Assembly: GCA_003525075.1 (NCBI GenBank)
Contig: DQFO01000014.1
Location: forward strand, 64,032-128,031
Direction: 5' to 3'
DNA length: 64,000 nt
Source of the DNA: Clostridiales bacterium
GTDB taxonomy: Bacteria > Bacillota > Clostridia > TANB77 > CAG-508
Numbering within the stretch: position 1 is the stretch's first letter; each line of letters starts with the position of its first letter. The position numbers were made by a program, and so were the translations under genes. Below the pieces are notes generated by a model. It saw only the letters and a program-made list of their open reading frames with translations, was not told the DNA's origin and searched no databases. Positions 1 to 17,945 of the stretch are shown here, piece by piece.

Positions 1-68
1 TTTATTTTTTCTTTATATTTATTAATTATGAAATAACCAAAATATAATATTTCTATTCCATATAACAT
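1..68 (-). CDS. Partial CDS (N-terminus only, runs off the window) of a hydrophobic membrane protein; may belong to the glycan cluster
   Basis: Minus-strand ATG at 68 opens a frame (MLYGIEILYFGYFIINKYKEKI...) that stays open to the window edge and is hydrophobic. Confidence 0.3.
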   Translation of the reverse strand, partial: MLYGIEILYFGYFIINKYKEKI

Positions 69-205
69 AGCAAGTCTTATTAATGTACTTTTTTCTAGTA
101 TTACTTTTTTTGAAAATAATAGTTCTATTATTATTGGTATAATTAAGTATATAACTCCTTTTAATATATTTTTTCCTACTTTTTTCAATTGTTTTTTCTC
201 CATTC

Positions 206-1891
206 TTAATAACTTATTTTATTATAATTTATCTTTGGCAAATCTGTATCTAATCTATAATTTTTATTATAATAAGGATCTCCTTTTGCAATTACTTTAG
301 ACCATCTTTTTACAAAAAGCTCATATTCTTTAGCAAATCTTTTTTGTTTTTCTGTATTTTCTGTGTCTTCTCCTCTTGATTTTGATTCATAATGATATGC
401 TTCAACAAATGGATTGTATACAATTAGATATTTTGCAGTTCTTATTTTCATGCAAAAATCGACATCATTAAATGCTACTGCCAATTTTTCATCAAAACCT
501 AACATATCTATATATAATTGTTTTCTTACCATAAAACATGCTGCTGTAACTGCACTTAAATCTTGAACTATATTTATATAATCATCTTTTTTGAAGTCTT
601 TTTCTTGTACTTCTCTACATCGATGTCCTGCAAGACCTCTAGTTCCTAATGTAACTCCTGCATGTTGAATACTTCTATCAGGGAAATATAATTTTGCCCC
701 ACATATTCCTACATCTGGTCTTTGTGCATACATAAGTAATTGTTCTATCCAGTCTTCTGTTATAAATTCTATATCATTATTTAACATTACTATGTATTCA
801 CCATTTGAACATTCAACACCATAATTTACAATTGCAGAATAGTTAAAGTAATTTATATCAAATTTGCAGACCTTTATTCTATTATCTTGTTTTGAAATCT
901 TTTCATAATATTCAAATGTTTCTTTATTTTTGCTATTATTTTCTACTATTATAACTTCATAATTTGAATATGTTGATTTTTCTAAAGATTTTAGCAATTT
1001 ACTTAAATCTTGTATATGATCCATATTTGGTACAACTAGTGATACTAATGGATTTCCTTTTATTTTATAATTAATTTTATATTGTCCTTCAAATCTTCCA
1101 TCTTTTATATTATCATATTCTAAGTTCATTCTTTTTAAATGTTTTGCTATTATTTGTTTTTCATCTTCAACATCTATTTTTCTGTTTTCAATTGTTTCAT
1201 GATATAGTATTTTTTGAATGTGTTCAATTTTTCTTGTTTTTTCACTAATTTGTAATAGTATGTCATAAATTATATTCTTATTTAAATTATTTAAAATATC
1301 TTGATGTATTTTTATAAAATCTGTTTTTACTGCAATAAATTGTCCAATATAATTTTGAGATAAAATTGTATCTCTTGCAAATCCTGGTTTAAAATGTGGT
1401 TCAGTTCTTTTTTCATCTATTAATTTGTCATTATCAGAATAAATTAATATACTATCTCTATATTCTATTGATTTTACTATTTCATATAATGCAAATTGGG
1501 CAAGTTCTATATTATTACCTAAAAAGATTAAATAATCACTTTTTGAGTTTAATATTCTTTCTTTCTCAAATTTATAAACATTATATTTTTTATATGTTTG
1601 ATTTTCTATACTTTTTATTAGTTTCTCATCATTTGGGCATATTATATCAAATTTCAAATTTTGACAAGATTCGTACTTTTTTTCATTTTCAAGTTCAGAA
1701 GTATTAGGCTCATTATTAGCAATCCATGTTGCATATTCGTCTAACACTACCTTTCCAAATCTTATTTTGTTAATTATTGTTGTTCCTAAACCTTTAAAAC
1801 CATTATTCTTTATATATCTAAGAACTGATTTCATATTTTGTAAATTAATTGCATTTAAAACTTTTTTTACTTTCCTTATTAGAGATTTCAT
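206..1891 (-). CDS. Two-domain glycosyltransferase; C-terminal half is GT2 family
   Basis: 561-aa ORF. GT2-like motifs (VVPNMDHIQDL...EVIIVENNS; DVDFCMKIR). Confidence 0.7.
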   Translation of the reverse strand: MKSLIRKVKKVLNAINLQNMKSVLRYIKNNGFKGLGTTIINKIRFGKVVLDEYATWIANNEPNTSELENEKKYESCQNLKFDIICPNDEKLIKSIENQTYKKYNVYKFEKERILNSKSDYLIFLGNNIELAQFALYEIVKSIEYRDSILIYSDNDKLIDEKRTEPHFKPGFARDTILSQNYIGQFIAVKTDFIKIHQDILNNLNKNIIYDILLQISEKTRKIEHIQKILYHETIENRKIDVEDEKQIIAKHLKRMNLEYDNIKDGRFEGQYKINYKIKGNPLVSLVVPNMDHIQDLSKLLKSLEKSTYSNYEVIIVENNSKNKETFEYYEKISKQDNRIKVCKFDINYFNYSAIVNYGVECSNGEYIVMLNNDIEFITEDWIEQLLMYAQRPDVGICGAKLYFPDRSIQHAGVTLGTRGLAGHRCREVQEKDFKKDDYINIVQDLSAVTAACFMVRKQLYIDMLGFDEKLAVAFNDVDFCMKIRTAKYLIVYNPFVEAYHYESKSRGEDTENTEKQKRFAKEYELFVKRWSKVIAKGDPYYNKNYRLDTDLPKINYNKISY

Positions 1892-1907
1892 TCACAATCC
1901 TCTTTCT

Positions 1908-4037
1908 TTATTGTTTTTTTATCCCCATTTTTATTAAAATATTTTTCAACACTCTTTTACATCTTCTTAAAAATCTATATGTTTTTCCATGATTGTCTAC
2001 ATATATTGGTTGTGCTTTTTGTAACTCTTCTGAGCATTTCATTGCTTCTTCTGTAGCTAAAAAAGCTGATTTTTTATAAAGTGGTTTTATCTCTGGTATA
2101 TCTTTATAATCTGTTTCTAACATGTCTTTTACTGCTTTTAAATATTCTTCAAATCCTTTTTCAAGTGGATAATTTTTCATATATTGTACACCAAATTTTG
2201 ACATCTTCTCAGCCACTTGTGGATTATCTAATATATATGCAATAGCACTAGCAATAGCCTCTGGTATTGGTTGTGCAAGCAATACTCCTTCATCTGGCAA
2301 GTCATATATGTTATTTTCTTTATATAATTCTACTACTGGTAACCCTGCTGACATCATTTCAAATGGTATTCTTGATGGATTTGATGCACTCATACATATT
2401 CCAACTTTACATTTATTATATAATTCATTACATTCTTTTATTGGTATTATATTTAAGTTTTTACATTCAAATTCAAATGTTGCTGGCATACTTGAACCAT
2501 ATAAATATATTTGTACATCTGGTTTCATTGCTTTTAATATTTTTAAAGCTTTTAATCCTATATAATCACATCTTCTTGGCTTTTCTGGTTGATATACAAA
2601 ACATATTGCATTTTCCTTTTTTACTTTTGGTAATGGTTTATATACATTTAAATCTGCACCAAAACTAAAATATTCTGCTGGCGTATTAAATTCTGCCTGC
2701 ATTTTATGCGCTAACCATTTTCCTATTGTTACTGGTAAAAATCCATATCTATATGAATTTTCTGTAATTAAATATTGATCTCCCATTGGGAAGAACCATG
2801 GTTCAAAATCTTGTATAAAATATGCTTTTTTCTTTGCTGGTAGTTTTCTTACAAATTCTACTGTTTGCCAACCTGTTGCAAACATCAAATCATATTCTTG
2901 TTTTAAATCAAATCCAACATATACTCCTGCATCACATTTTTCATACCAATCATTTATTTTTTGTCTTACTATTTCAGATGTTGAAACACCATCTTCTTCA
3001 AAATATAAATCACAATCATATCCTGCTCTTATTAAAGCATTTACATTTTGAATTATTGTTCTATGCCCACCAGATCCTTTTCCAGGATGTGGTATTACCC
3101 ATGCAATTTTCTTTTTTCCATTATCTTTTTTTGGTAATAATGGATACATAAAACTTCTTCTTAATTCTTGTTTGTCTTTGATTTCTTTTGTTAATTCATA
3201 TGTTTTAGATATCTCGTCTTGAATTCTACAAATCTCATTAAATTCGATTTCTGCTTTTACATCTGTACATACTGATGAACCATGTTTTCTATAATAGTTA
3301 AGTGGCTTATTACACCAACTAATCTTTCCATTTTTTAATATATTAAAATAAATATACCAGTCTCCTGCAACCTTAAATTCTCCTGCTTTTTCTAAAATTT
3401 CTGTGTAATCTTGTTTTTTCCACATTACACTAGAAACATTTAATATTGTGTTTGTTACACTTAAATGTTCTTTTATTTCTTTTTCTCCTGGCCATATATA
3501 TGATTTATTCCATTCTCCTGTTCTGCACATATCATATAAATCATCTGATTTTTCTCTTATTAAATTATTTTCTCCATCAATTCTAGCAGATTCACAATAT
3601 GATAATACAACTTCTGGATCATCAAATGGTTTTATTAAATTTTCAACAAAATCATTTTCAGCAGAATCATCTGCTTCTGCAATCCATATATAATCTCCTG
3701 TCGAAGCATTAAATCCCTTTTTCCATTGTTTAAATACACAACCACCACTATTTTTTTCATTAATGATAAATTGAACTTTTATTTCTGGATGTTCTTTTTT
3801 TATCTCATCTATTTTTTTATTTATTACTTTAACACTATTGTCTGGTGAACAATCATCTAATATAACAATTTCATATATTGGATATGTTTGCATTAATACA
3901 GAGTCTATTCTCTCTATTATATATTTTTCGTAATTATAATTTGGAATTATTACACTTACTTTTTTTGGATTTTCTATTTTTAATTTTTTCTTTTGATGTT
4001 TATAAATATCTATTTTTTTCTCCATAAAAACCTCCAT
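1908..4037 (-). CDS. Bifunctional glycosyltransferase (N-terminal GT2 domain plus C-terminal GT4/GT1-like domain)
   Basis: 709-aa ORF. N-terminus VSVIIPNYNYEKYIIERIDSVLMQTYPIYEIVILDDCSPDNS is typical GT2; C-terminal half is GT-B-like (AWVIPHPGKGSGGHRT). Confidence 0.7.
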   Translation of the reverse strand: MEVFMEKKIDIYKHQKKKLKIENPKKVSVIIPNYNYEKYIIERIDSVLMQTYPIYEIVILDDCSPDNSVKVINKKIDEIKKEHPEIKVQFIINEKNSGGCVFKQWKKGFNASTGDYIWIAEADDSAENDFVENLIKPFDDPEVVLSYCESARIDGENNLIREKSDDLYDMCRTGEWNKSYIWPGEKEIKEHLSVTNTILNVSSVMWKKQDYTEILEKAGEFKVAGDWYIYFNILKNGKISWCNKPLNYYRKHGSSVCTDVKAEIEFNEICRIQDEISKTYELTKEIKDKQELRRSFMYPLLPKKDNGKKKIAWVIPHPGKGSGGHRTIIQNVNALIRAGYDCDLYFEEDGVSTSEIVRQKINDWYEKCDAGVYVGFDLKQEYDLMFATGWQTVEFVRKLPAKKKAYFIQDFEPWFFPMGDQYLITENSYRYGFLPVTIGKWLAHKMQAEFNTPAEYFSFGADLNVYKPLPKVKKENAICFVYQPEKPRRCDYIGLKALKILKAMKPDVQIYLYGSSMPATFEFECKNLNIIPIKECNELYNKCKVGICMSASNPSRIPFEMMSAGLPVVELYKENNIYDLPDEGVLLAQPIPEAIASAIAYILDNPQVAEKMSKFGVQYMKNYPLEKGFEEYLKAVKDMLETDYKDIPEIKPLYKKSAFLATEEAMKCSEELQKAQPIYVDNHGKTYRFLRRCKRVLKNILIKMGIKKQ

Positions 4038-5542
4038 TTTGGTATTTTTACATATTGCTCTCTTAATCTTTTATTTTCTTCTGTTAAATTAAAAATTTGT
4101 TCTTTCAAATTATCTGCTTCTGCTTTTTGTGCATTACTTCTAATATTCAAGTTTTCTATTTCTTGTTCTTGTGCCTTATTTCTTATATTTTGATTTATTA
4201 ATTCTTGTTTTGTCGCATCTATATCTATAATATTATTTTGCTTATATGATTTCCATGTTTCATCATCTCTTACCATTTCTTGCATTTTATCATCTAGTTT
4301 TTTAAATAGTTCTAAATATTTTGTTAAATTGTATTTTTCTAATAAATCTTCAATTTTTATAAATCTTCTTAATGATATTGTATATAAAATAGATCTATAT
4401 AAAATGTATTCAACTGGTAAATTAGGCTCGTCCCATTCTTGATCAAAGAAATAGAAATCATTATCTATATAAAAACAATTTTTAAATGTCATATCCCATA
4501 ATCCTTTAGGAGTAAAATGCAAATCATTTATTATAGTTTTATCTTGTATTTCTAGATTATATTTTCCAAATGCTGTTTTTTCATAATTTTCTTCATGATA
4601 TATATCAATACTAATTTTTTCTATAAATTTATCTAATATTTCATAAAATTCATCATTTCTCTGTTCTTCAAGTAGCTCTGTTAATCTATTATTTAATAAA
4701 TTTTTCTGTTCTATATATTTACTTCTTATTATTTGATTTTCTATATAATCAACAGTTTTTATACCATTTTCATTTAAATATCTTATATTACTTTTTATAT
4801 TTTCATAATGTTTATGTGCTTTTTCATTTACTTCTTGTTTTTCCACATATTCATCTGCAATTTTTGTAATTAATCTATATTTTTCTTTTCTTATATTATT
4901 AAAAGATATATATTTATATGTTTTATCACATTCACCTTTTGTTATTTCAATTAAAAATGAATTTGCAAAAAATGTAAACATATTTTTATCTGTTTTTAAT
5001 ATTTCTCTAAATACATCAATTTCATTAAATGTAATATCATTATTTTCTATATAATATGGATGATATTTATCTATACTATTATATTCTGGCAATTGTTCAT
5101 CTGTAAAAATTACATTAGGCTTTTTATAATCTGGTAATGGATAATAAAATCTCATATTATATCCTAATTTTCTTATTTCATTTTCTATACTTGATTTTGT
5201 ATATGTTTCTCTTTTATTTTGTTCATTATTATATCCTGTTAAACTAGCAAATTTCTTTTTATATATTTTATCTGGCGTTCCATTAAATGCTTCTAGCCCA
5301 AATTTATTATCAATTGTTATTAGTATTTTTCCTTTTTCTTCTAAAATTTTTTCTACCTTTTTTATAAGTTCTTTTAATTTGATATTTTGATTTTCAAAGA
5401 TTCCTACAAGTATAATTACATCAAATTTTTCATTACATAAATCAATTTCTTCTATATTTTTTATTTCTTTTATTTTTTGGTTTTCTTTAAAAGGATACCA
5501 ATTTAATATATTAGGACTTTGAACTTCACCCACTATTTCCAC
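4010..5542 (-). CDS. Hypothetical protein with a C-terminal coiled coil; possible WbdD-like chain terminator or length regulator
   Basis: 510-aa ORF. Long heptad-like, charged C-terminal tail (NIRNKAQEQEIENLNIRSNAQKAEADNLKEQIFNLTEENKRLREQ). Lies next to the Wzt-type ABC ATPase. Confidence 0.45.
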   Translation of the reverse strand: MEIVGEVQSPNILNWYPFKENQKIKEIKNIEEIDLCNEKFDVIILVGIFENQNIKLKELIKKVEKILEEKGKILITIDNKFGLEAFNGTPDKIYKKKFASLTGYNNEQNKRETYTKSSIENEIRKLGYNMRFYYPLPDYKKPNVIFTDEQLPEYNSIDKYHPYYIENNDITFNEIDVFREILKTDKNMFTFFANSFLIEITKGECDKTYKYISFNNIRKEKYRLITKIADEYVEKQEVNEKAHKHYENIKSNIRYLNENGIKTVDYIENQIIRSKYIEQKNLLNNRLTELLEEQRNDEFYEILDKFIEKISIDIYHEENYEKTAFGKYNLEIQDKTIINDLHFTPKGLWDMTFKNCFYIDNDFYFFDQEWDEPNLPVEYILYRSILYTISLRRFIKIEDLLEKYNLTKYLELFKKLDDKMQEMVRDDETWKSYKQNNIIDIDATKQELINQNIRNKAQEQEIENLNIRSNAQKAEADNLKEQIFNLTEENKRLREQYVKIPKWRFLWRKK

Positions 5543-5546
5543 CTCT

Positions 5547-6437
5547 TTATATTGAAATTTTTATATTTCCATCTTTCTCTATAATATTTTTATTTACATT
5601 TAATTCTTCAATCCATTTTCTAGTTTCTTTAGTTTTCCAAGGTCCTGAATCTTCACCATTTCCTGAATCATTAATCCATAGCCAATCTGGTGTTGGCCAT
5701 AAACATATTTTAGGTTTTATGTATTCATATATTTCTTTACTAACTCCTTGTTGACCATGATGTGCCATTTGCAATATATTTACTTTTAATTTTTCCTTTT
5801 GATTATCTAATAATTTATTTCCACTTTCTACTCCAGTATCTCCTAAAAATAAAATTGAGTTTTTCTTTGTCTCCATTTTTATTACCATACTAGAATTGTT
5901 TATTGCATTTTTTGTTATTTCTGGATTTTTTATTCCTAAAATTTCACATTTTATATTATCAATTTGTATTTGTTCATTTAATGTTACTTCTTCAACTTTT
6001 GAAGATATTTTTTCAGATTTTATAGTGTCTAAAAATCTTATACACTCATCTGCTCTACCATCTCCATAATTATTATACCATTCTTCATCTTCTGTTGTTA
6101 CATATACTTTACCAATATCTATATTATAATTATTTACTATCTCAATAAATGCTGTTGCATGGTCTTGATGTGGATGTGTTATAAACCAATAATCTACTTT
6201 TCCTGTGTATTCGTTTATTTTCTGTAAAAGATTTTCTGTATCATCAGATGTCCCACCATCAATAACAATTATTTTATCATTATCTGTTTTTATGATATAT
6301 CCCATCATTTGACTATGTCCACTATTTTTTAATTGTTCTAGTGTAGTCGTCTTTAAATTTAATTTCCAAACTTCCAAAATTCCTACAAGTATTATTAATA
6401 TTATTACTGTTAAAAATATTTTCTTTTTATTTTTCAT
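5547..6437 (-). CDS. Membrane-anchored MBL-fold metallo-hydrolase
   Basis: N-terminal transmembrane segment. HxHxDH motif (ITHPHQDHATAF) and a later HH motif. Confidence 0.7.
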   Translation of the reverse strand: MKNKKKIFLTVIILIILVGILEVWKLNLKTTTLEQLKNSGHSQMMGYIIKTDNDKIIVIDGGTSDDTENLLQKINEYTGKVDYWFITHPHQDHATAFIEIVNNYNIDIGKVYVTTEDEEWYNNYGDGRADECIRFLDTIKSEKISSKVEEVTLNEQIQIDNIKCEILGIKNPEITKNAINNSSMVIKMETKKNSILFLGDTGVESGNKLLDNQKEKLKVNILQMAHHGQQGVSKEIYEYIKPKICLWPTPDWLWINDSGNGEDSGPWKTKETRKWIEELNVNKNIIEKDGNIKISI

Positions 6438-7749
6438 TATTTCCTCTTATTTTTTCAATTTTGATTTTTGAATCTAATCTCATCAATCCAACAGTATCTT
6501 TTGTAGATAAAACTTCAATCAATAATGCATCATATTTTCTGTTTAATACTTCTAATTCACCTTTACTATTAAAATGTGTACAACTAAATGATAATGTATA
6601 TTTTCCTGGTGCTACATTTATTACCTGTCTGAATTCTGCAACTACTACATCACCTTTTTTATAATTTCCTGTTGCAATTTTTTCTATTAATGTATTTGTT
6701 CCTGCCATCTCAAGACCTTTAAAATCTTTTACAGTCATTGTAAATATAGGATCTTTTACATCTTTATGAAAAACTATTTTAGATTTTAATACTACTTCTT
6801 TATCATTTTCTAATACTGATATATAATTTTCATTTTCATCAAACATTCCATAATCTACTACTTCTGCACTTCCATCTCCATATGTAATTAAATTTGGATT
6901 TTCATTAAAGTGTGATTTCCATGTTTCTCCATTTTTCTCTTTTAATGCTTGATAATTAGGATTTTTTTCTAATATTTGCTTATCTGTAAGTATTCCTTCT
7001 TTACTTGTTTTATCATCTAGTCCAACTATAATTTTCTTATATTTTTCTACTCCTTCTTTTACATCTCCATCAAATATTTTTCTGCCTGCATCAATTATAA
7101 TCGTTCTTGTACAGTTTCTTAAAATATCAGTTATACTATGTGTTACAAATAAAATTGTTTTTCCACTTTCTTTAAATTGTTCAAATTTTTTGAAACATTT
7201 TAATTGGAATGACATATCTCCAACAGATAATACTTCATCTACAATTAATATATCTGGATTAACATTTATTGCACATGCAAATGCTAGTCTTGCAAACATT
7301 CCTGATGAATATGTTTTTACTGGTTGATATAAGTGATCCCCTATATCTGCAAAGTCTATTATTTCCTGTTCTCTAGCTTTTATTTCTTCATTTGTTAATC
7401 CCATAACTTGTCCATGTTGATATATATTCTCATATCCAGTTAATTCTTGATTAAATGCTGTTCCTAACTCTAAAAGTGAACTTATTTTTCCTTTAGCTTC
7501 TATTGTTCCTTTTGTTGGTGTTACAACACCTGTTATCATTTTTAATAATGTTGATTTTCCTGCACCATTTTTTCCTAAGACACCAAGTACTTCACCTTTT
7601 TTTACTTCTAAATTAAAATCATGCATTGCTTCAAATACTCCATGTCTTTCAACTCCTGGAAATAATGTTTCTATTATCCTATCTTTTTTCCTTGCAAACA
7701 TTTTGTAATCTTTTGAAAGCCCTTCTATTTTTAAAACTGTTTCACTCAT
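6427..7749 (-). CDS. ABC transporter ATP-binding protein, Wzt/TagH type, with an extra C-terminal (carbohydrate-binding-like) domain
   Basis: Walker A (GKNGAGKST), ABC signature (YSSGM) and Walker B (ILIVDE), followed by a C-terminal extension of about 190 aa. Confidence 0.8.
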   Translation of the reverse strand: MSETVLKIEGLSKDYKMFARKKDRIIETLFPGVERHGVFEAMHDFNLEVKKGEVLGVLGKNGAGKSTLLKMITGVVTPTKGTIEAKGKISSLLELGTAFNQELTGYENIYQHGQVMGLTNEEIKAREQEIIDFADIGDHLYQPVKTYSSGMFARLAFACAINVNPDILIVDEVLSVGDMSFQLKCFKKFEQFKESGKTILFVTHSITDILRNCTRTIIIDAGRKIFDGDVKEGVEKYKKIIVGLDDKTSKEGILTDKQILEKNPNYQALKEKNGETWKSHFNENPNLITYGDGSAEVVDYGMFDENENYISVLENDKEVVLKSKIVFHKDVKDPIFTMTVKDFKGLEMAGTNTLIEKIATGNYKKGDVVVAEFRQVINVAPGKYTLSFSCTHFNSKGELEVLNRKYDALLIEVLSTKDTVGLMRLDSKIKIEKIRGNNEK

Positions 7750-7769
7750 ATTGTATAACTCCTTTTCGC

Positions 7770-8756
7770 CTATCTTTTTAATTTTTTAAATCCTCTTCTA
7801 ATTTTAAACAATCCTCTTCCTATTGCAGGCATATTCATTATTATAAAGTTTTCTATATAATAAATTAATGTTTCTGTTTTATATAATTCATGAAATATTC
7901 CCCATCCTTTAAAATTAAAGTTTTTCTTTTTTTGAATATCTTGAAAATATTTATATGCTTTTTCATTTTGTTTTTGAAGTTTTTCTGGAAATATTTCTTT
8001 ATGTTTTACATATGTACCAAATACACCTAATTTTACATTTATGAATAATTCTCTTACTTGTTCTAATTCTTGAAAATTATGTGATATCTTATTTGTTCCA
8101 ACTTGATTATTTCCATGTTGCCTATATTTTATATACTTTTCTGGCATATATGCCAATTTTCCATTTAATGCAATAACAATTCCAATCCAATGGTCATGTA
8201 TTAAATATTTAGAATCTGTTGGAAATGGTAATATTTTTTCTATAAATTCTTTTGTAGATAATATTGTACAACCTGTAACTACATTATATAAATAATTTAC
8301 TTTATAACTTCCAATGTATTTATTTATTTTTCTATTCAATAACATGAAATCTCCAAAAGAAGGATATATTGTTTCTAATTTTTCATTTACTACTTCTAAG
8401 TCTCCAAAAACTAAATCTGCTCCTGTTTCTTTTTGTTTTTGAATAGTTTTTTCTATTTTTTCTGGAAGCCATACATCATCTTGATCTGATAACATATAAA
8501 ATTTGCTTTCTACTTGTCTTAGTAAAAATTCAAAATTTTTATTTGAACCTAAGTTCCTGTCGTGTAAAAATATTTTTATTCTATCATCTTTTTTCTCATA
8601 TTCTTGCAATATTTCTTGTGTTCTATCTTTTGAACAATCATCTGAAATTAAAATTCTTATATTTTTATATGTTTGTTTTATTATACTATCTAATTGTTCT
8701 CTTAAATATTTTTCTCCATTATATGTTGCTACAAGAACATCTACTTTTTCTTTCAT
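7770..8756 (-). CDS. GT2 glycosyltransferase, rhamnosyltransferase-like
   Basis: VLVATYNGEKYLREQLDSIIKQTYKNIRILISDDCS. Paralog of 10158-11138. Confidence 0.7.
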   Translation of the reverse strand: MKEKVDVLVATYNGEKYLREQLDSIIKQTYKNIRILISDDCSKDRTQEILQEYEKKDDRIKIFLHDRNLGSNKNFEFLLRQVESKFYMLSDQDDVWLPEKIEKTIQKQKETGADLVFGDLEVVNEKLETIYPSFGDFMLLNRKINKYIGSYKVNYLYNVVTGCTILSTKEFIEKILPFPTDSKYLIHDHWIGIVIALNGKLAYMPEKYIKYRQHGNNQVGTNKISHNFQELEQVRELFINVKLGVFGTYVKHKEIFPEKLQKQNEKAYKYFQDIQKKKNFNFKGWGIFHELYKTETLIYYIENFIIMNMPAIGRGLFKIRRGFKKLKR

Positions 8757-8776
8757 TTTTGCTTCCCTTCTATTGT

Positions 8777-9571
8777 TTATAATACATCTGCAAAATCTTT
8801 TTTACTCTTTTTAAATATATAATTTCCCCATGCAAAAATTAATATTGTTATTACCCAAAATGCAATTGTAAACATTCCATGGTTTGCTGTTACTATATTT
8901 GTATTTCCCATAAAACAATCTCTAAATCCTGTTACTAAATATGTAAATGGTAAGAATTTCATAATCATTGAAATTTTATGATGTTCTGCAATCATTGATA
9001 AGTCCCAAACAACTGGTGTAAGCCACATACATATTTGCATTACAATTCCTAATAAATTTGAAAAGTCTGGAACTAATGTTGCAACAGCTGATGTAAATCT
9101 TGTTATTGCTATTAAGAATATATATACTGAAATTATCATATATATCATTTGAAATACATTTGGTACAAATTTGAATATTACACATACTGCTGTTGCTATA
9201 ACAATTAAAAATAATGATACAAATGCATTAGCTATTAATGATATTAATGGTATTATATCTACTGGAAATACTACTTTTTTTACTAAATAACTATATCCTC
9301 TTATTGAATTACTTGCTCCTATAATTCCATCATTTATTGTCATCCACATTGCCATTCCAGGCATAAACCATACTACATATGGTGCTCCTCCAGGTCCTGT
9401 TTGCTTAAATATATATTGAAATACTATTACATACATCATCATAAATACAAATGGTTGTAAAAATCCCCATATACTTCCTAAGCTTGTATTAGCAAATCTA
9501 TTTTTAAAGTCATTTTTTCCTAATTGCCATGCTAATCTTTTGTTTTTCAAAAATACTTTTAAAAATTCCAT
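8777..9571 (-). CDS. ABC-2 type polysaccharide or teichoic acid export permease (Wzm/TagG-like)
   Basis: 264 aa with six predicted transmembrane helices. Sits directly next to the Wzt-like ATPase. Confidence 0.8.
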   Translation of the reverse strand: MEFLKVFLKNKRLAWQLGKNDFKNRFANTSLGSIWGFLQPFVFMMMYVIVFQYIFKQTGPGGAPYVVWFMPGMAMWMTINDGIIGASNSIRGYSYLVKKVVFPVDIIPLISLIANAFVSLFLIVIATAVCVIFKFVPNVFQMIYMIISVYIFLIAITRFTSAVATLVPDFSNLLGIVMQICMWLTPVVWDLSMIAEHHKISMIMKFLPFTYLVTGFRDCFMGNTNIVTANHGMFTIAFWVITILIFAWGNYIFKKSKKDFADVL

Positions 9572-9660
9572 TTCTTCCTTTTCCTTTCGCCATTCATCCC
9601 TCTGTTTTTTATCTTCTACATTCTATCTTTAAATTGCTTATTTGTCAATAAATGGGCTTC

Positions 9661-9708
9661 AAAAAAAAGAATTACATAGAAAATAATTCTCTATGTAATT
9701 CTTTTATT
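9661..9708. terminator. Bidirectional intrinsic terminator
   Basis: Perfect 12-bp stem GAATTACATAGA / TCTATGTAATTC (9669-9680 and 9690-9701) with a 9-nt loop, flanked by an A8 run and TTTTATT. Confidence 0.65.
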
Positions 9709-10111
9709 AATTCATACTATTATCAACTGAAAAAGACCCATTTGATAATTCTATATATCCAGCTCCAGAACCAATTCCTTGTGATTCCATATTTATATTT
9801 TTTAATACTTCATTCATTGTAATTATTTTATCTGTTGTTTTGGCAGTTTCATATGCTGGATTCTTATATGATAACTTTTCCTTTATTTTTTAATGAATAT
9901 AGATAGTCTGTAGTCCATCTTCTGTTTCTTGCAAATAATTACTAGAATTATAGTCATCTAATAAAAAATTCAAATACTCTTTTGCTTTTCCTTCTTCATT
10001 TGCTTCTTTTGATCTTGCTACAATTCCATTCTTTCAAGTCAATGCATTTATTGTAGTTCCAGCAAAAACCAACATAATAACTATTGTTACTGCAAGAGTT
10101 ATTAGTGTCAT
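9707..10111 (-). pseudogene. Decayed gene for a small membrane-anchored (pilin-like N-terminus) protein, interrupted by in-frame TGA and TAA codons
   Basis: A single minus-strand frame reads MTLITLAVTIVIMLVFAGTTINALT*KNGIVARSKEANEEGKAKEYLNFLLDDYNSSNYLQETEDGLQTIYIH*KIKEKLSYKNPAYETAKTTDKIITMNEVLKNINMESQGIGSGAGYIELSNGSFSVDNSMN*. The reading stays coherent across two stop codons. Confidence 0.4.
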
Positions 10112-10157
10112 CCCATCTTTTGTTATTATCCCATTTTCTCCTATTCTAATACCACTT

Positions 10158-11138
10158 TTAGTATCTGTATTTTAAATATGAAATTATTGGAAAGTGAAAC
10201 AATGCAATTTCTCTTATCATTTTCTTTCCTTGATTTTTTCCTGACAAAATTTTGAAATAGTCTCCTATATTTTTAATATTTATTTTCTTTGTTTTATATA
10301 TTTCATTATAATAATTTATTGCTTTTTGGCAAAATTCTAAATCTATTTTTTTATTTGCATATTGTTCACACATCTTTATTCCACCATCATATGCCCTTTT
10401 TATAGCATCTTCTCTGTATTTTAAGAATGCATCATAACTATTACCATTCTTCTCTTTCCATCTATTCAAATTTTGATTTAAACTTCGTCCTCCAAAAACA
10501 TTTGAATTATGTAATCTATAATCAAATAATTCTTCTTTTATATAGTCTATTCCCTTTCCTTCATTTGCAATAAAAGCTGCTAACCAATCATGTGCAATTA
10601 CTTTAGATTTAAATGGTATCATCTTTTCTTTAACTGATTTAGTTATTATTTGAGAACATCCAATCCCAACACATCTTGATATTGCCAATTTGTCATTCCC
10701 TTTTACTAATGGTACATTTTTATATTTGAAATAGTTGTCTCTTAGCACAATTCCATCTTCATCTATTTGCCTACAATTGCAATAAACCATATCAACATCT
10801 TTGTCTTTTAATAATTTTAGGCTTTTTTCTACTTTATCTTTATGCCAAACATCGTCATGATCTGAAAACATTATATAATTTGCTGTAGATTGTTGTAACA
10901 AAAATTCAAAATTTTTATTATATCCTAAATTTTGAGGTTGCAAAAATAATCTTATTCGATTATCATTTTTTTCATACTCTTCTAGTAATTCCTTTATTTC
11001 ATTTTTATTTGAATTGTCATCACTTATATATATTTTTATATTTTTATATGTTTGTCTTAATATACTTTCAATTTGTTTTTTTAGATATTTTTCATTTGTA
11101 TTATATGTTGTAACTAATATATCTACTACTTCGTCCAT
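10158..11138 (-). CDS. GT2 glycosyltransferase, rhamnosyltransferase-like
   Basis: ILVTTYNTNEKYLKKQIESILRQTYKNIKIYISDDNS. Paralog of 7770-8756. Confidence 0.7.
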   Translation of the reverse strand: MDEVVDILVTTYNTNEKYLKKQIESILRQTYKNIKIYISDDNSNKNEIKELLEEYEKNDNRIRLFLQPQNLGYNKNFEFLLQQSTANYIMFSDHDDVWHKDKVEKSLKLLKDKDVDMVYCNCRQIDEDGIVLRDNYFKYKNVPLVKGNDKLAISRCVGIGCSQIITKSVKEKMIPFKSKVIAHDWLAAFIANEGKGIDYIKEELFDYRLHNSNVFGGRSLNQNLNRWKEKNGNSYDAFLKYREDAIKRAYDGGIKMCEQYANKKIDLEFCQKAINYYNEIYKTKKINIKNIGDYFKILSGKNQGKKMIREIALFHFPIISYLKYRY

Positions 11139-11607: not shown

Positions 11608-11635
11608 AATAGATTTTATATTTTAGTTTTTCACA

Positions 11636-11675
11636 AAAGCCCGCAGATGAAAAAAATCATCTGCGGGCTTTTTAT
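11636..11675. terminator. Strong GC-rich intrinsic terminator (15-bp perfect stem), bidirectional; also closes convergent recO
   Basis: AAAGCCCGCAGATGA-aaaaaa-TCATCTGCGGGCTTT followed by TTT. Confidence 0.8.
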
Positions 11676-13476: not shown

Positions 13477-15773
13477 TATTCTTCCTCCATTTGTTTAACT
13501 GAATACTCTAAAACATTAATATTTTTTACAATTAATTTTGCTCCAATTTCCTCATCGTCTAATTTTCCTATTCTTATAACTTTTTTTGATTCTAATTTTA
13601 TGTCCATATCACTTAACTTAGCTATAATTCTAGTATCATTATCCATTCCAATTGGTAATGTTTTATTTTGGTTATCATAATATATACAATTAGAAAATGC
13701 TATAACATTTGAACCTTTTTCTAATTTTATTTTATATAAATTAATCTTACTATTTTCTGATTTTTCTGTTGCTTTTTTTACTTCATCTTCAGCATTTAAA
13801 TTAAATACATTTATTTTATTTGCATCAATACTTTCTCCATCTTCAGTCCACATATATGCAATAATGTCTTGACTTGTAGTTACTTTAGTAATTGCTTCAT
13901 TTATTCTCCAAATAACTTGACTAAGATTTACTTTATAATCAACAACTTTATATTGTTTTGCTAAACCTAATATTAGAAATTTATTTTTTGGATTTTCTCT
14001 ATGGGATTTATTATCTAATTTTTTTATTTTTCTCGTATCTTCTTCCAATCCTCCAAAAATATCAACTTCATCATCTAATCTTCCTTTTTGTTCCTTATAT
14101 TCAGCTTTCAATATTTTTAAATACTTATCCAATTCTTTAGGTTCTAATGAATTTGTCTTTAATTTATTTATTGGCTCTATTTGTTCTGTTGCTACCAAAA
14201 ATATAGAATCTAACTCTTCTTTATTTAATTTATTTCTTTGAACTTTATCCATCATAATGCCAAATTCTTCAAAATCTTCTTCAAACTCAAAAGTTTTGGT
14301 ATGTGGTTTTACATTTACAACTTCTTCTTCACCTTCTGCTAAAGACTTTACTTCATCTTTATTACTGTATTTCCAAAATTCAAATATACTCTTTTTATGA
14401 CTATCTATTTCAGCTATAAAAGCTGATGCATTTTCTATCTTTTTTGTTAAATTAACTTTCTTTAATTTTATTGCATTTATATCCATTTTTGTATTGTTAA
14501 ATTCTTTTTCTTTTTCTGCAGTCTCTTTTCCTTTTTCTAACAAATCGTCTAATGTATATTGTTTTTTTATTTTTTCTTCTTCATCTACTTCAGCTACTTC
14601 TTGTATTGTGTTATTTTCTTTTACTTCTGCTTCTTTTTTTGCTTCTTTCTTTTTCTTCTTTCCACTATATTTAAAGAAATATTTAACTTTTCCAAAAAAT
14701 GTTTTTTTACATTCTAAAAATGTTGAAATTTGTTTTTCTTTTTCTATATAATCTGCTTCAAGTTTTTCTGTTTCTTTTTTTAAAATTTCTAATTTATTTT
14801 TATATTCTATATTATTTTTTATATTTTCTTCTTCTATATCAATTAATTTTTTATATTGACTATTAATAAAGTCTGGTAGATCATCATATTTTAAAATTTC
14901 ATCTTGATAATAAAATTCTAGTTCTCCCTGTTTGTCTATTTGAACTTCAAATTTATAATACTCCGGAATTTCTGTTTGGAGTATATATAATGCTTTTACA
15001 AGTTTAAAAAATTTACTTGCATCTATTTTTCCGGTAAGTTTTACTTTGTATTCTGATTTTATTGTTCCTAAAACTTGAGTTTGTCCAATTATTTGTAATG
15101 ACACTTTCCCTGTTTTATCATAAACTTCATATATTGATGGCCAATCATTTGTAAATGTCCATAAATAATTTTCCAAGCTTTCAATTTCTGTTTTATTTAA
15201 TATTTCCTTTGAATAATCTATATTACTTATAGGAACAAATATCTTTCCAGCTTTCTTTTTTTCTAATTGTTTTTTTAATACATAAAAAAATGTTGAATAG
15301 TCTTTATCTTCAGTTGTTACTATCATAAAATATTTTTCATCATTTTCTGAATAATATATTTGCCATAAATAATTTTTTGGATATCTTATTTTGAAAGGAA
15401 TTTTTTTATTTAAATTTTGTTGTTGTTCTTCAATTTCTTTTATCTCATCTATATCAACTTCACTTAACATTCTTAAAAATTCTTCATGTAGTTGCTTTTC
15501 TTCTTCTGTTTTGGGATCTAAATATGAAACTAATGGTTTGGCCATAGAATATTTTGTTTTAGTATCTTCTAATCTATTACATGGTGATACCAATATTTCT
15601 AATTCTTTTGGTGATACAAATCTATATTGTTTATACTTATTTTCTTCAATTCCTGTATTAGGTCTAAAATTTATATTTTCAACATATTTTAATGTTTCAG
15701 GTATTTGTTCTAAATCTAAGCATATATATTCTAATTTTTCTGCTATTTCTTGTGCTATTTTTTTCTTTTCCAA
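13476..15773 (-). CDS. Large (765 aa) Lys/Glu-rich hypothetical protein
   Basis: Long ORF in the same orientation as era and abutting it. Low-complexity charged stretches (KKKKKEAKKEAEVKENN). No recognisable catalytic motif. Confidence 0.55.
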   Translation of the reverse strand: MEKKKIAQEIAEKLEYICLDLEQIPETLKYVENINFRPNTGIEENKYKQYRFVSPKELEILVSPCNRLEDTKTKYSMAKPLVSYLDPKTEEEKQLHEEFLRMLSEVDIDEIKEIEEQQQNLNKKIPFKIRYPKNYLWQIYYSENDEKYFMIVTTEDKDYSTFFYVLKKQLEKKKAGKIFVPISNIDYSKEILNKTEIESLENYLWTFTNDWPSIYEVYDKTGKVSLQIIGQTQVLGTIKSEYKVKLTGKIDASKFFKLVKALYILQTEIPEYYKFEVQIDKQGELEFYYQDEILKYDDLPDFINSQYKKLIDIEEENIKNNIEYKNKLEILKKETEKLEADYIEKEKQISTFLECKKTFFGKVKYFFKYSGKKKKKEAKKEAEVKENNTIQEVAEVDEEEKIKKQYTLDDLLEKGKETAEKEKEFNNTKMDINAIKLKKVNLTKKIENASAFIAEIDSHKKSIFEFWKYSNKDEVKSLAEGEEEVVNVKPHTKTFEFEEDFEEFGIMMDKVQRNKLNKEELDSIFLVATEQIEPINKLKTNSLEPKELDKYLKILKAEYKEQKGRLDDEVDIFGGLEEDTRKIKKLDNKSHRENPKNKFLILGLAKQYKVVDYKVNLSQVIWRINEAITKVTTSQDIIAYMWTEDGESIDANKINVFNLNAEDEVKKATEKSENSKINLYKIKLEKGSNVIAFSNCIYYDNQNKTLPIGMDNDTRIIAKLSDMDIKLESKKVIRIGKLDDEEIGAKLIVKNINVLEYSVKQMEEE

Positions 15774-15839
15774 AACTAGATTTTCCTTTCTCTTTATTTC
15801 TTTTTTATTTTACTATTATTTACTGAAAATATCAATATT

Positions 15840-16820
15840 TTAATTTTTATTTTCCATAAAAAATTTTTTTACTTTATCTATAAGTTCATCTGCATTTGTT
15901 ATATGATTTACTTCATCTCTAAATTTTGAAGCTTCTGGCATATTTTTTGTGTATGCTGATATGTTTTTTCTCATTTCATTAATTCCAACAATCTCTCCCT
16001 TTTCTTTTATATTTAATTCTATATGTTGTTTAATAATTTCATATTTTTCTTTATTATCAGGTCTGGGCATTTTATTATTATTTTCTATAAAGTATTTTAT
16101 TTGTTCAAATATCCAAGGATTTCCCATTGCTCCTCTTCCTATCATTATCCCATCAACACCTGTATATTCAAACATTTTTAATGCTGATTCTTCATCAACT
16201 ATGTCTCCATTTCCTATTACTGGTATTTTTACTGATTCTTTAACTTTCTTTATAATATCTAAATCTGCTTTTCCGGAATAATATTCTTCTCTTGTTCTTC
16301 CATGTATTGTTATTGCTGAAACCCCACATTTTTCAGCAATTTTAGCTAATTCACATGCAACAATATTTTCATTATTCCATCCTTTTCTAAATTTTAAAGT
16401 CACTGGTTTGGTTGAATTTTTTACTACTGATCTTATTATTTCTTCAGCTTTGTCTATATCTAATAATAATTTACTACCATCACCATTTTTTACAACTTTT
16501 GGGGCTGGACATCCCATATTTATATCTACTATATCTGCTATTTTACTTACATATTGTGCTGCAAATCCCATAGTTTCAGGATCACTTCCAAATATTTGCA
16601 TGCTTACTGGAACATTTTCTCCTGTTCTATTTAATAATTGTTTTGTTTTTTCGTCTCCAAAAAACAAGGCTTTTGAACTTACCATTTCTGTACAAACTAA
16701 ACCAGGTTTGAATTTTTCTGTAATTATTCTAAAAGGCAGGTCTGTTACACCTGCCATTGGAGCTAATATTAAGTTATTTTCTAATTCTAAATTTCCAATC
16801 TTTAATTTTTTTAAATACAT
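15840..16820 (-). CDS. dus: tRNA-dihydrouridine synthase
   Basis: LAPMAGVTDLPFR motif; TIM-barrel FMN-binding (GNGDI). Confidence 0.85.
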   Translation of the reverse strand: MYLKKLKIGNLELENNLILAPMAGVTDLPFRIITEKFKPGLVCTEMVSSKALFFGDEKTKQLLNRTGENVPVSMQIFGSDPETMGFAAQYVSKIADIVDINMGCPAPKVVKNGDGSKLLLDIDKAEEIIRSVVKNSTKPVTLKFRKGWNNENIVACELAKIAEKCGVSAITIHGRTREEYYSGKADLDIIKKVKESVKIPVIGNGDIVDEESALKMFEYTGVDGIMIGRGAMGNPWIFEQIKYFIENNNKMPRPDNKEKYEIIKQHIELNIKEKGEIVGINEMRKNISAYTKNMPEASKFRDEVNHITNADELIDKVKKFFMENKN

Positions 16821-16829
16821 CTTTTACTC

Positions 16830-17945
16830 CTATTTGTTAAACAATCCATTTCGTCTTTGACTACTAATATTTAATAAAATTCCAATTGCAACAAAACTTG
16901 TCATCATAGAACTTCCACCATAACTTACAAATAATAATGGAACTCCTGTTATTGGTAATACTCCCATTGTCATACCAATATTTTCTAAAGTATGAAATAA
17001 AAATATTCCAGCAATTCCAATTGCAACATATGCTCCTGCTTCATCTTTTATCCCTTTTGCAATCTGAACTGCTTTTACAATAATCAATATATTCAGTAAT
17101 ATTACTGAGCATGCAATTATAAAGCCCATTTCTTCTCCGACTACTGCAAAAATAAAATCTGTTGTTTTAGGATATAAATATCCTAATTGTGTTTGATTTC
17201 CTTTTAATACTCCCATTCCAGTAATTTGTCCAGAGCCTATTGCTAATTTAGATTGTAAAATATTATATCCAGATCCTGTTGGATCTGATTCTGGATTTAA
17301 AAATGTGTCAATTCTATCTTTTGCATGTTTTGGTAAAATAAAATTATATGTTATAGGTGTTGCTATAGCTATTATCAAAATTGATACAATAATGTATTTT
17401 TTATCAATTCCAGCTACAAAAATCATTAGTAAAAATGACACAATATATGCTGCTGCTGTTCCATAATCTGGTTCTACAATTATAAGTACTAAAGGAATTG
17501 CTATTGCTAATAATATTAATGCTAACTTGCTAATTCTATTTATTTCATCTCTTCCATTTCTTATCTGAATAAAAGAAATAACGTATGACATAAATAAAAT
17601 TATAAATATTTTTGATATTTCAGCTGGTTGAAATGAAAATAAATCATCTCCTATTACAAACCAACTCCTTGCACCATTTATTGGTTTGGTAAATAGTACT
17701 GCAATTAACATTATTATTGAAATTCCATAAAAAATCGGTGACACTTTAACTAAAATTTTATAATCTATTAACATAACAATTAGCATAAGTACAAAACTTA
17801 TGCCAATCCAAATTGCTTGTTTCTTAAATTCTTCTAAATTTGTATCATATGAAGCTGAATATAATGCAACTAGTCCAATTACACATAATATTATTGCCGC
17901 TATTGGAATCAGCCATTCTATCTTTCTTAATCTTCTTATATCCAT
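16830..17945 (-). CDS. rodA: SEDS-family peptidoglycan polymerase (RodA/FtsW); downstream of minDE as in Clostridia
   Basis: 371 aa with about 10 transmembrane helices and typical SEDS motifs. Position after minE. Confidence 0.7.
   Translation of the reverse strand: MDIRRLRKIEWLIPIAAIILCVIGLVALYSASYDTNLEEFKKQAIWIGISFVLMLIVMLIDYKILVKVSPIFYGISIIMLIAVLFTKPINGARSWFVIGDDLFSFQPAEISKIFIILFMSYVISFIQIRNGRDEINRISKLALILLAIAIPLVLIIVEPDYGTAAAYIVSFLLMIFVAGIDKKYIIVSILIIAIATPITYNFILPKHAKDRIDTFLNPESDPTGSGYNILQSKLAIGSGQITGMGVLKGNQTQLGYLYPKTTDFIFAVVGEEMGFIIACSVILLNILIIVKAVQIAKGIKDEAGAYVAIGIAGIFLFHTLENIGMTMGVLPITGVPLLFVSYGGSSMMTSFVAIGILLNISSQRRNGLFNK

Follow-up and report, generated by a model that had tools for sequence, protein, structure and literature searches.

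A predicted kinase-terminated surface glycan cluster with a Wzt carbohydrate-binding domain in an uncultured gut Clostridia bacterium

The DNA analysed here (the window, 64 kb) comes from an uncultured gut Clostridia bacterium, a Gram-positive spore-former. The cluster, all on the minus strand, contains three GT2 glycosyltransferase genes, a GT2/WsaF-like fusion, wzm, wzt, a gene for a membrane MBL hydrolase, and a gene for a 510-aa protein, here called X510. Every gene lies at the coordinates given by the first-pass annotation. That annotation had counted five glycosyltransferase genes; we found four (10158–11138, 7770–8756, 1908–4037, and 206–1891). The supposed fifth, at 1–203, is the start (ATG at 203–201) of the next cluster gene, which encodes a DUF7657/DUF7654-type membrane protein and is cut by the window edge. 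Its product is 68% identical to the N-terminus of the DUF7657 + DUF7654 protein at 15471–17564 of a related locus, L005; it is distinct from the DUF6020 gene that occupies the same place in loci L001 and L003. The cluster does not end at position 1, as had been proposed, and runs on past the left window edge. In L001 and L005, which are syntenic, the downstream genes include a GT2 gene paired with a small DUF2304 gene (GacI/GacJ-like), a flippase (GtrA), and a large membrane protein.

The first gene after the recO terminator encodes a 326-aa GT2 glycosyltransferase (10158–11138; Pfam Glycos_transf_2, 7.8e-30), a candidate adaptor or early transferase. Pattern matches alone place a terminator-like hairpin downstream of recO (11635–11672) and a promoter-like site ahead of this GT2 gene (11195–11167). 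Between it and wzm is a gap on the minus strand without an intact gene (9572–10157), in which the longest open reading frame is at most 56 aa and pilin-like gene fragments occur, among them MTLITLAVTIVIMLVFAGTTINALT*. The gap also contains an AT-rich hairpin with a T run after it (about 9655–9700) and, in front of wzm, a promoter-like TTGACA-17-TAGAAT pattern match (9648–9620). A second small GT2 enzyme of 328 aa is encoded between wzm and wzt (7770–8756; Glycos_transf_2, 8.2e-32) and matched only generic GT2 structures in the PDB. The two enzymes are paralogs (41% identity, E 9e-51), as first annotated; their description as WbbL-like rhamnosyltransferases could not be established (TIGR01556 gave 23.9 bits, with a cut-off of 200).

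The 709-aa protein encoded at 1908–4037 is indeed the GT2/GT4 fusion that had been described. It carries Glycos_transf_2 (aa 28–166, 5.2e-27) and WsaF_C (aa 477–599, 2e-15) domains, matches the WsaF structure 2x0d (E 1.3e-9), and is a candidate polymerase component. Homologs at 70–100% identity were found only in the window's clade (loci L001–L034 and L037). The remaining glycosyltransferase, GT2_561 (206–1891, 561 aa), has two modules with homology to the polymerase half of ORF6 of Klebsiella pneumoniae O7. This C-terminal half of ORF6 is a dTDP-rhamnose-dependent dual rhamnosyltransferase polymerase (PMC11231755). In BLASTP comparisons, GT2_561 is 45% identical to ORF6 1141–1414 (8e-38), the module that adds the alpha-1,3-rhamnose that is subsequently capped. 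It is 31% identical to ORF6 766–1140 (1e-18), where FADHDDEL is replaced by FLGNNIEL and the DXDD motif is lost. Of the two modules, only the second is intact, the first being degenerate.

Wzm (8777–9571) is an ABC-2 type permease of a glycan exporter (Pfam ABC2_membrane, 4.6e-14). It scored 3.4e-10 with the NCBIfam galactan_ABC_perm Wzm/RfbD model, under the cut-off of that model, and its gene adjoins wzt in most related loci. Wzt (6427–7749, 440 aa) has an ABC_tran domain (aa 43–173, 1.4e-23) and, as had been noticed, an extra C-terminal domain. This domain (aa 289–425; 6475–6885) matches Pfam Wzt_C with an E-value of 7.2e-32 and 110.8 bits (cut-off 30.4). The top PDB match of the whole chain is full-length Aquifex aeolicus Wzt (8dku, 2.9e-68). 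When residues 255–440 were searched alone, the best match, nearly full length, was the carbohydrate-binding domain (CBD) of E. coli O9a Wzt (2r5o, E 1.4e-12; query 30–173 against chain 37–182), followed by the CBD of the A. aeolicus protein. Judged by these matches, the C-terminus is a genuine Wzt_C domain with no TagH-type extension. The O9a Wzt module recognises WbdD-terminated chains (PMC3482155), and we predict that the domain in the window reads a capped non-reducing end.

The 296-aa product of 5547–6437 is an MBL-fold metallo-hydrolase (Lactamase_B, 5.4e-10). Its membrane location had been proposed earlier and agrees with an N-terminal transmembrane (signal-anchor) helix, which probably places the catalytic domain on the outer side of the membrane. 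The HxHxDH motif, read from the sequence as HPHQDH, is intact. A ComEC-type MBL model matched under its cut-off (4.6e-13). PDB matches were weak and included ComEC and the teichoic-acid phosphorylcholine esterase 1wra (E 0.022). Homologs with at least 49% identity are present in 25 of the 80 related loci described below.

X510 (4010–5542) begins with GTG, and the end of its gene shares 28 nt with the beginning of the next one. Sequence searches of Pfam, NCBIfam, and the PDB gave no match. A methyltransferase-like domain, a kinase-like domain, and a heptad helix are nevertheless all present. The AF2 model is of moderate quality, with a mean pLDDT of 66.8; confidence is low over most of the N-terminal domain, and the kinase core is best predicted. 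Residues 1 to about 200 (4943–5542) form a degenerate class I methyltransferase-like domain from which about 55 residues are gone, among them those of the glycine-rich motif I and the acidic residue that normally follows strand 2. With its whole SAM-binding region lost, this part is dead. Residues about 205–435 (4238–4930) form a protein-kinase-like domain (APH/Bud32/AmiN-like; K235, D350-x4-N355, D367-Q-E-W), whose nearest folds are aminoglycoside and macrolide kinases. The strand-3 lysine K235, the catalytic-loop D350 and N355, and the metal-binding D367 are nearly invariant even in relatives with as little as about 30% identity. Only 41 of 81 aligned sequences keep the alpha-C glutamate E247, a point against the explanation we favour.

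Residues 441–497 (4052–4222) form the coiled-coil stalk, a single helix in the AF2 model. The C-terminal coiled coil had been called long; the helix is there, but it is short, at roughly 57 residues (8 heptads). Of its 17 a/d positions, 10 are hydrophobic, a count reached by 131 of 5000 shuffles. The stalk includes a tandem 14-residue repeat (NIRNKAQEQEIENL / NIRSNAQKAEADNL) and a 14-residue indel relative to the other members of alignment A1. X510 ends in a basic-hydrophobic tail, YVKIPKWRFLWRKK (4013–4051, read from the sequence), and its relatives finish in similar basic tails. By analogy with WbdD (PMC11231755), the tail is a candidate membrane or partner anchor.

X510 had been annotated as WbdD-like. 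The domain logic of that description stands, but judged by sequence X510 is not WbdD: a PDB search gave no sequence match, and the Foldseek match to WbdD is weak (4azs, E 4.6e-3). By homology, its real relative is instead the N-terminal part of K. pneumoniae O7 ORF6 (ORF6-N), a methyltransferase-kinase terminator characterised in 2024 (PMC11231755). The ORF6 protein was shown to cap terminal rhamnose (PMC11231755). Homology to ORF6-N was detected with the window protein alone (3e-7), with the A1 profile (1.4e-16), and with a profile of 68 full-length relatives (2.4e-38). The ORF6-N sequence was taken from the published alignment, reconstructed from OCR text, and ends at the catalytic loop; the homology extends over the methyltransferase-like half and the first kinase strands only. 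Motifs common to the X510 family and ORF6-N are VLEIGAG.GAIT, IENxxGxKYFAGxPEDH, PLPDYKLP, and ANSF.

The X510 family comprises about 3,700 clusters at 50% identity. We compared the 80 closest genome loci, all of which are from Clostridia-type MAGs. In this neighbourhood comparison, wzm and a CBD-bearing wzt adjoin the X510 homolog in 75 of the 80. Nine loci encode a fused polypeptide of about 970–1230 aa in which an X510 homolog is joined by a longer coil to a GT2_561 homolog; other family members are fused to GT2 + WsaF, WbsX + RgpF, or RgpF. The combination of a methyltransferase/kinase/coil terminator with a Wzt CBD had been thought unusual in Clostridia. These searches show that it is by no means rare: gut Clostridia MAGs contain very many members of the family, and there is a precedent in Clostridioides difficile SLCT-11, where a phosphate-capped S-layer glycan is made by an ABC transporter pathway with a Wzt_C-type transporter (PMC6254364).

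The closest characterised system is that of K. pneumoniae O7, in which a coiled coil links the terminator part of ORF6 to a pair of dTDP-rhamnose GT2 modules (PMC11231755). X510 is homologous to its N-terminal and GT2_561 to its C-terminal part. X510 shares its domain order (methyltransferase-like, unannotated kinase, coiled coil), its D-x4-N loop with the catalytic Asp in an AmiN/APH-like kinase fold, its partnership with Wzm and a CBD-bearing Wzt, and the occurrence of relatives in two forms, ending after the coil or fused to glycosyltransferases. In the window, however, terminator and polymerase are on separate genes with the GT2/WsaF gene between them, and wzt is separated from the terminator gene by the inserted MBL hydrolase gene. 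X510 also has a deleted SAM-binding region, a shorter coil, and no Ig-like CBM between kinase and coil in its AF2 model, and the first module of GT2_561 is without DXDD. The published orthologs of ORF6 are proteobacterial and cyanobacterial (PMC11231755), whereas the present host is a Gram-positive spore-former. WbdD of E. coli O9a and K. pneumoniae O3 likewise combines a methyltransferase, a eukaryotic-like kinase, a coiled coil, and a C-terminal membrane/partner region on a polypeptide separate from the polymerase (4azs; PMC3482155). In that system only capped chains are exported, via the Wzt CBD (PMC3482155). Unlike X510, WbdD has a far longer coil and an active methyltransferase. The fused relatives (L036, L039, and others) recall K. 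pneumoniae O12 WbbB in uniting terminator, coiled-coil ruler, and polymerase, but the WbbB terminator is a Kdo transferase without a kinase, unrelated in sequence (PMC11231755).

Gram-positive systems offer further parallels. The SLCT-11 (Ox247) cluster of C. difficile, also a Clostridia-class spore-former, uses the ABC pathway and has a Wzt with a Wzt_C-like domain; directly beside wzt is orf10, an AdoMet-MTase-domain gene and a possible counterpart of the X510 gene (PMC6254364). The SLCT-11 glycan is rich in rhamnose and carries at its end a phosphate-type cap, 2,3-cyclophospho-rhamnose, for which the capping enzyme has not been assigned in C. difficile (PMC6254364). The rmlABCD genes are part of that locus, as are genes for an initiating transferase and an O-ligase (PMC6254364). 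Among the scanned window ORFs of at least 150 aa, by contrast, there were no rml genes, initiating phosphoglycosyltransferase, LCP ligase, or O-oligosaccharyltransferase, which counts against our preferred explanation. The slg cluster of Geobacillus stearothermophilus NRS 2004/3a (WsaE, WsaF, Wzm/Wzt) makes an ABC-dependent rhamnan with a capped end that Wzt is predicted to read (PMC2943079), and the window has a WsaF-type rhamnosyltransferase domain. The slg cap, however, is a 2-O-methyl group from the WsaE methyltransferase domain, with no kinase, and the glycan is moved to the S-layer protein by WsaB (PMC2943079); no WsaB-like ligase was found in the window. In the streptococcal and lactococcal Rgp/Gac clusters, an ABC-dependent rhamnan core is followed by extracytoplasmic decoration (PMC9574508). 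Decoration there involves a GT2 with a small DUF2304 activator (GacI/GacJ-like), a flippase, and a large membrane transferase, with counterparts in L001 and L005. The window lacks RgpF- or RgpA-type enzymes and rml genes; RgpE is the proposed Rgp/Gac terminator, and a review mentions no kinase-coil terminator (PMC9574508).

We propose, with a probability of about 0.62, that the cluster is the cytoplasmic assembly and export core for an ABC-transporter-dependent capped surface glycan, probably containing rhamnose, whose chains are terminated by the X510 kinase. A length-controlled, capped glycan had been suggested before, and the Wzt_C domain, the X510 fold, and the linkage in 75 of 80 loci support it. 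The polymer would be built on a polyprenol carrier, with the initiating transferase encoded outside the window. Its chains would be extended by the GT2/WsaF-like enzyme and by the active second module of GT2_561, which is similar to an alpha-1,3-rhamnosyltransferase. X510 would end growth by phosphorylating, through its kinase domain, the non-reducing terminal sugar. The stalk and basic tail may set the distance of the kinase from the membrane-bound polymerase, so that only chains of a minimum length would be capped. The Wzt_C domain of Wzt would bind the capped end and license export via Wzm. The product may be an S-layer glycan or a polymer linked to the cell wall. The genes past the left edge would then add side-chain sugars outside the membrane.

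The nature of the cap and the role of the kinase allow other readings. Since the SAM-binding region is lost while the kinase residues are conserved, the cap is most likely a phosphate without methyl. A methylphosphate cap as in K. pneumoniae O7 and O3, made by the X510 kinase together with a SAM-dependent methyltransferase whose own gene lies elsewhere in the genome, is unlikely. Five loci (L007, L036, L038, L054, and L068) have both a stand-alone canonical methyltransferase (LEIGAGMGAIT, VELS) and an X510 relative with a degenerate domain. Moreover, the CBDs of loci whose terminators keep motif I are 75–82% identical to that of the window; both groups may therefore share one kind of cap, and the case for phosphate alone is weaker for it. 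Against this, tblastn with the L036 stand-alone methyltransferase matched only X510 in the 64-kb window, no such gene is annotated in the downstream 10 kb of L001, and X510 is the sole FYYPLPDY-type protein in most loci of the window's clade among L001–L015.

The dead methyltransferase and the dead module of GT2_561 imply that this clade tolerates fossil domains. X510 could then be a non-catalytic coiled-coil adaptor or ruler with both domains fossil, the capping sugar being added by a small GT2, as proposed for RgpE in the lactococcal rhamnan (PMC9574508). The poor conservation of the alpha-C glutamate fits this, but the four nearly invariant kinase residues would be unexpected in a fossil, and no part of the model is better predicted than the kinase core; we consider such a scaffold distinctly improbable. 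Kinase activity on an internal sugar or small molecule, in the manner of APH-type resistance, with Wzt recognising the polymer backbone and no cap, seems very unlikely. The nearest folds would suit it, and CBD specificity is unreadable from sequence, yet the linkage to wzm/wzt, the covalent fusion to polymerising glycosyltransferases, and the homology to a protein that caps terminal rhamnose all speak against it. We give hardly any credence to a teichoic-acid-type polyol-phosphate polymer with a TagGH-like exporter. Among NCBIfam models, those for TagH match the ATPase domain best (237 and 210 bits), but these scores fall under the models' cut-offs (538 and 320), the C-terminal domain is Wzt_C, the transferases are GT2 and WsaF-like, and no TagF/TagB-type CDP-glycerol transferase or TagD is among the cluster genes.

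If termination by the X510 kinase is correct, a capping strategy known from Gram-negative bacteria would operate here in a stripped-down Gram-positive form, in which only capped chains would be exported.

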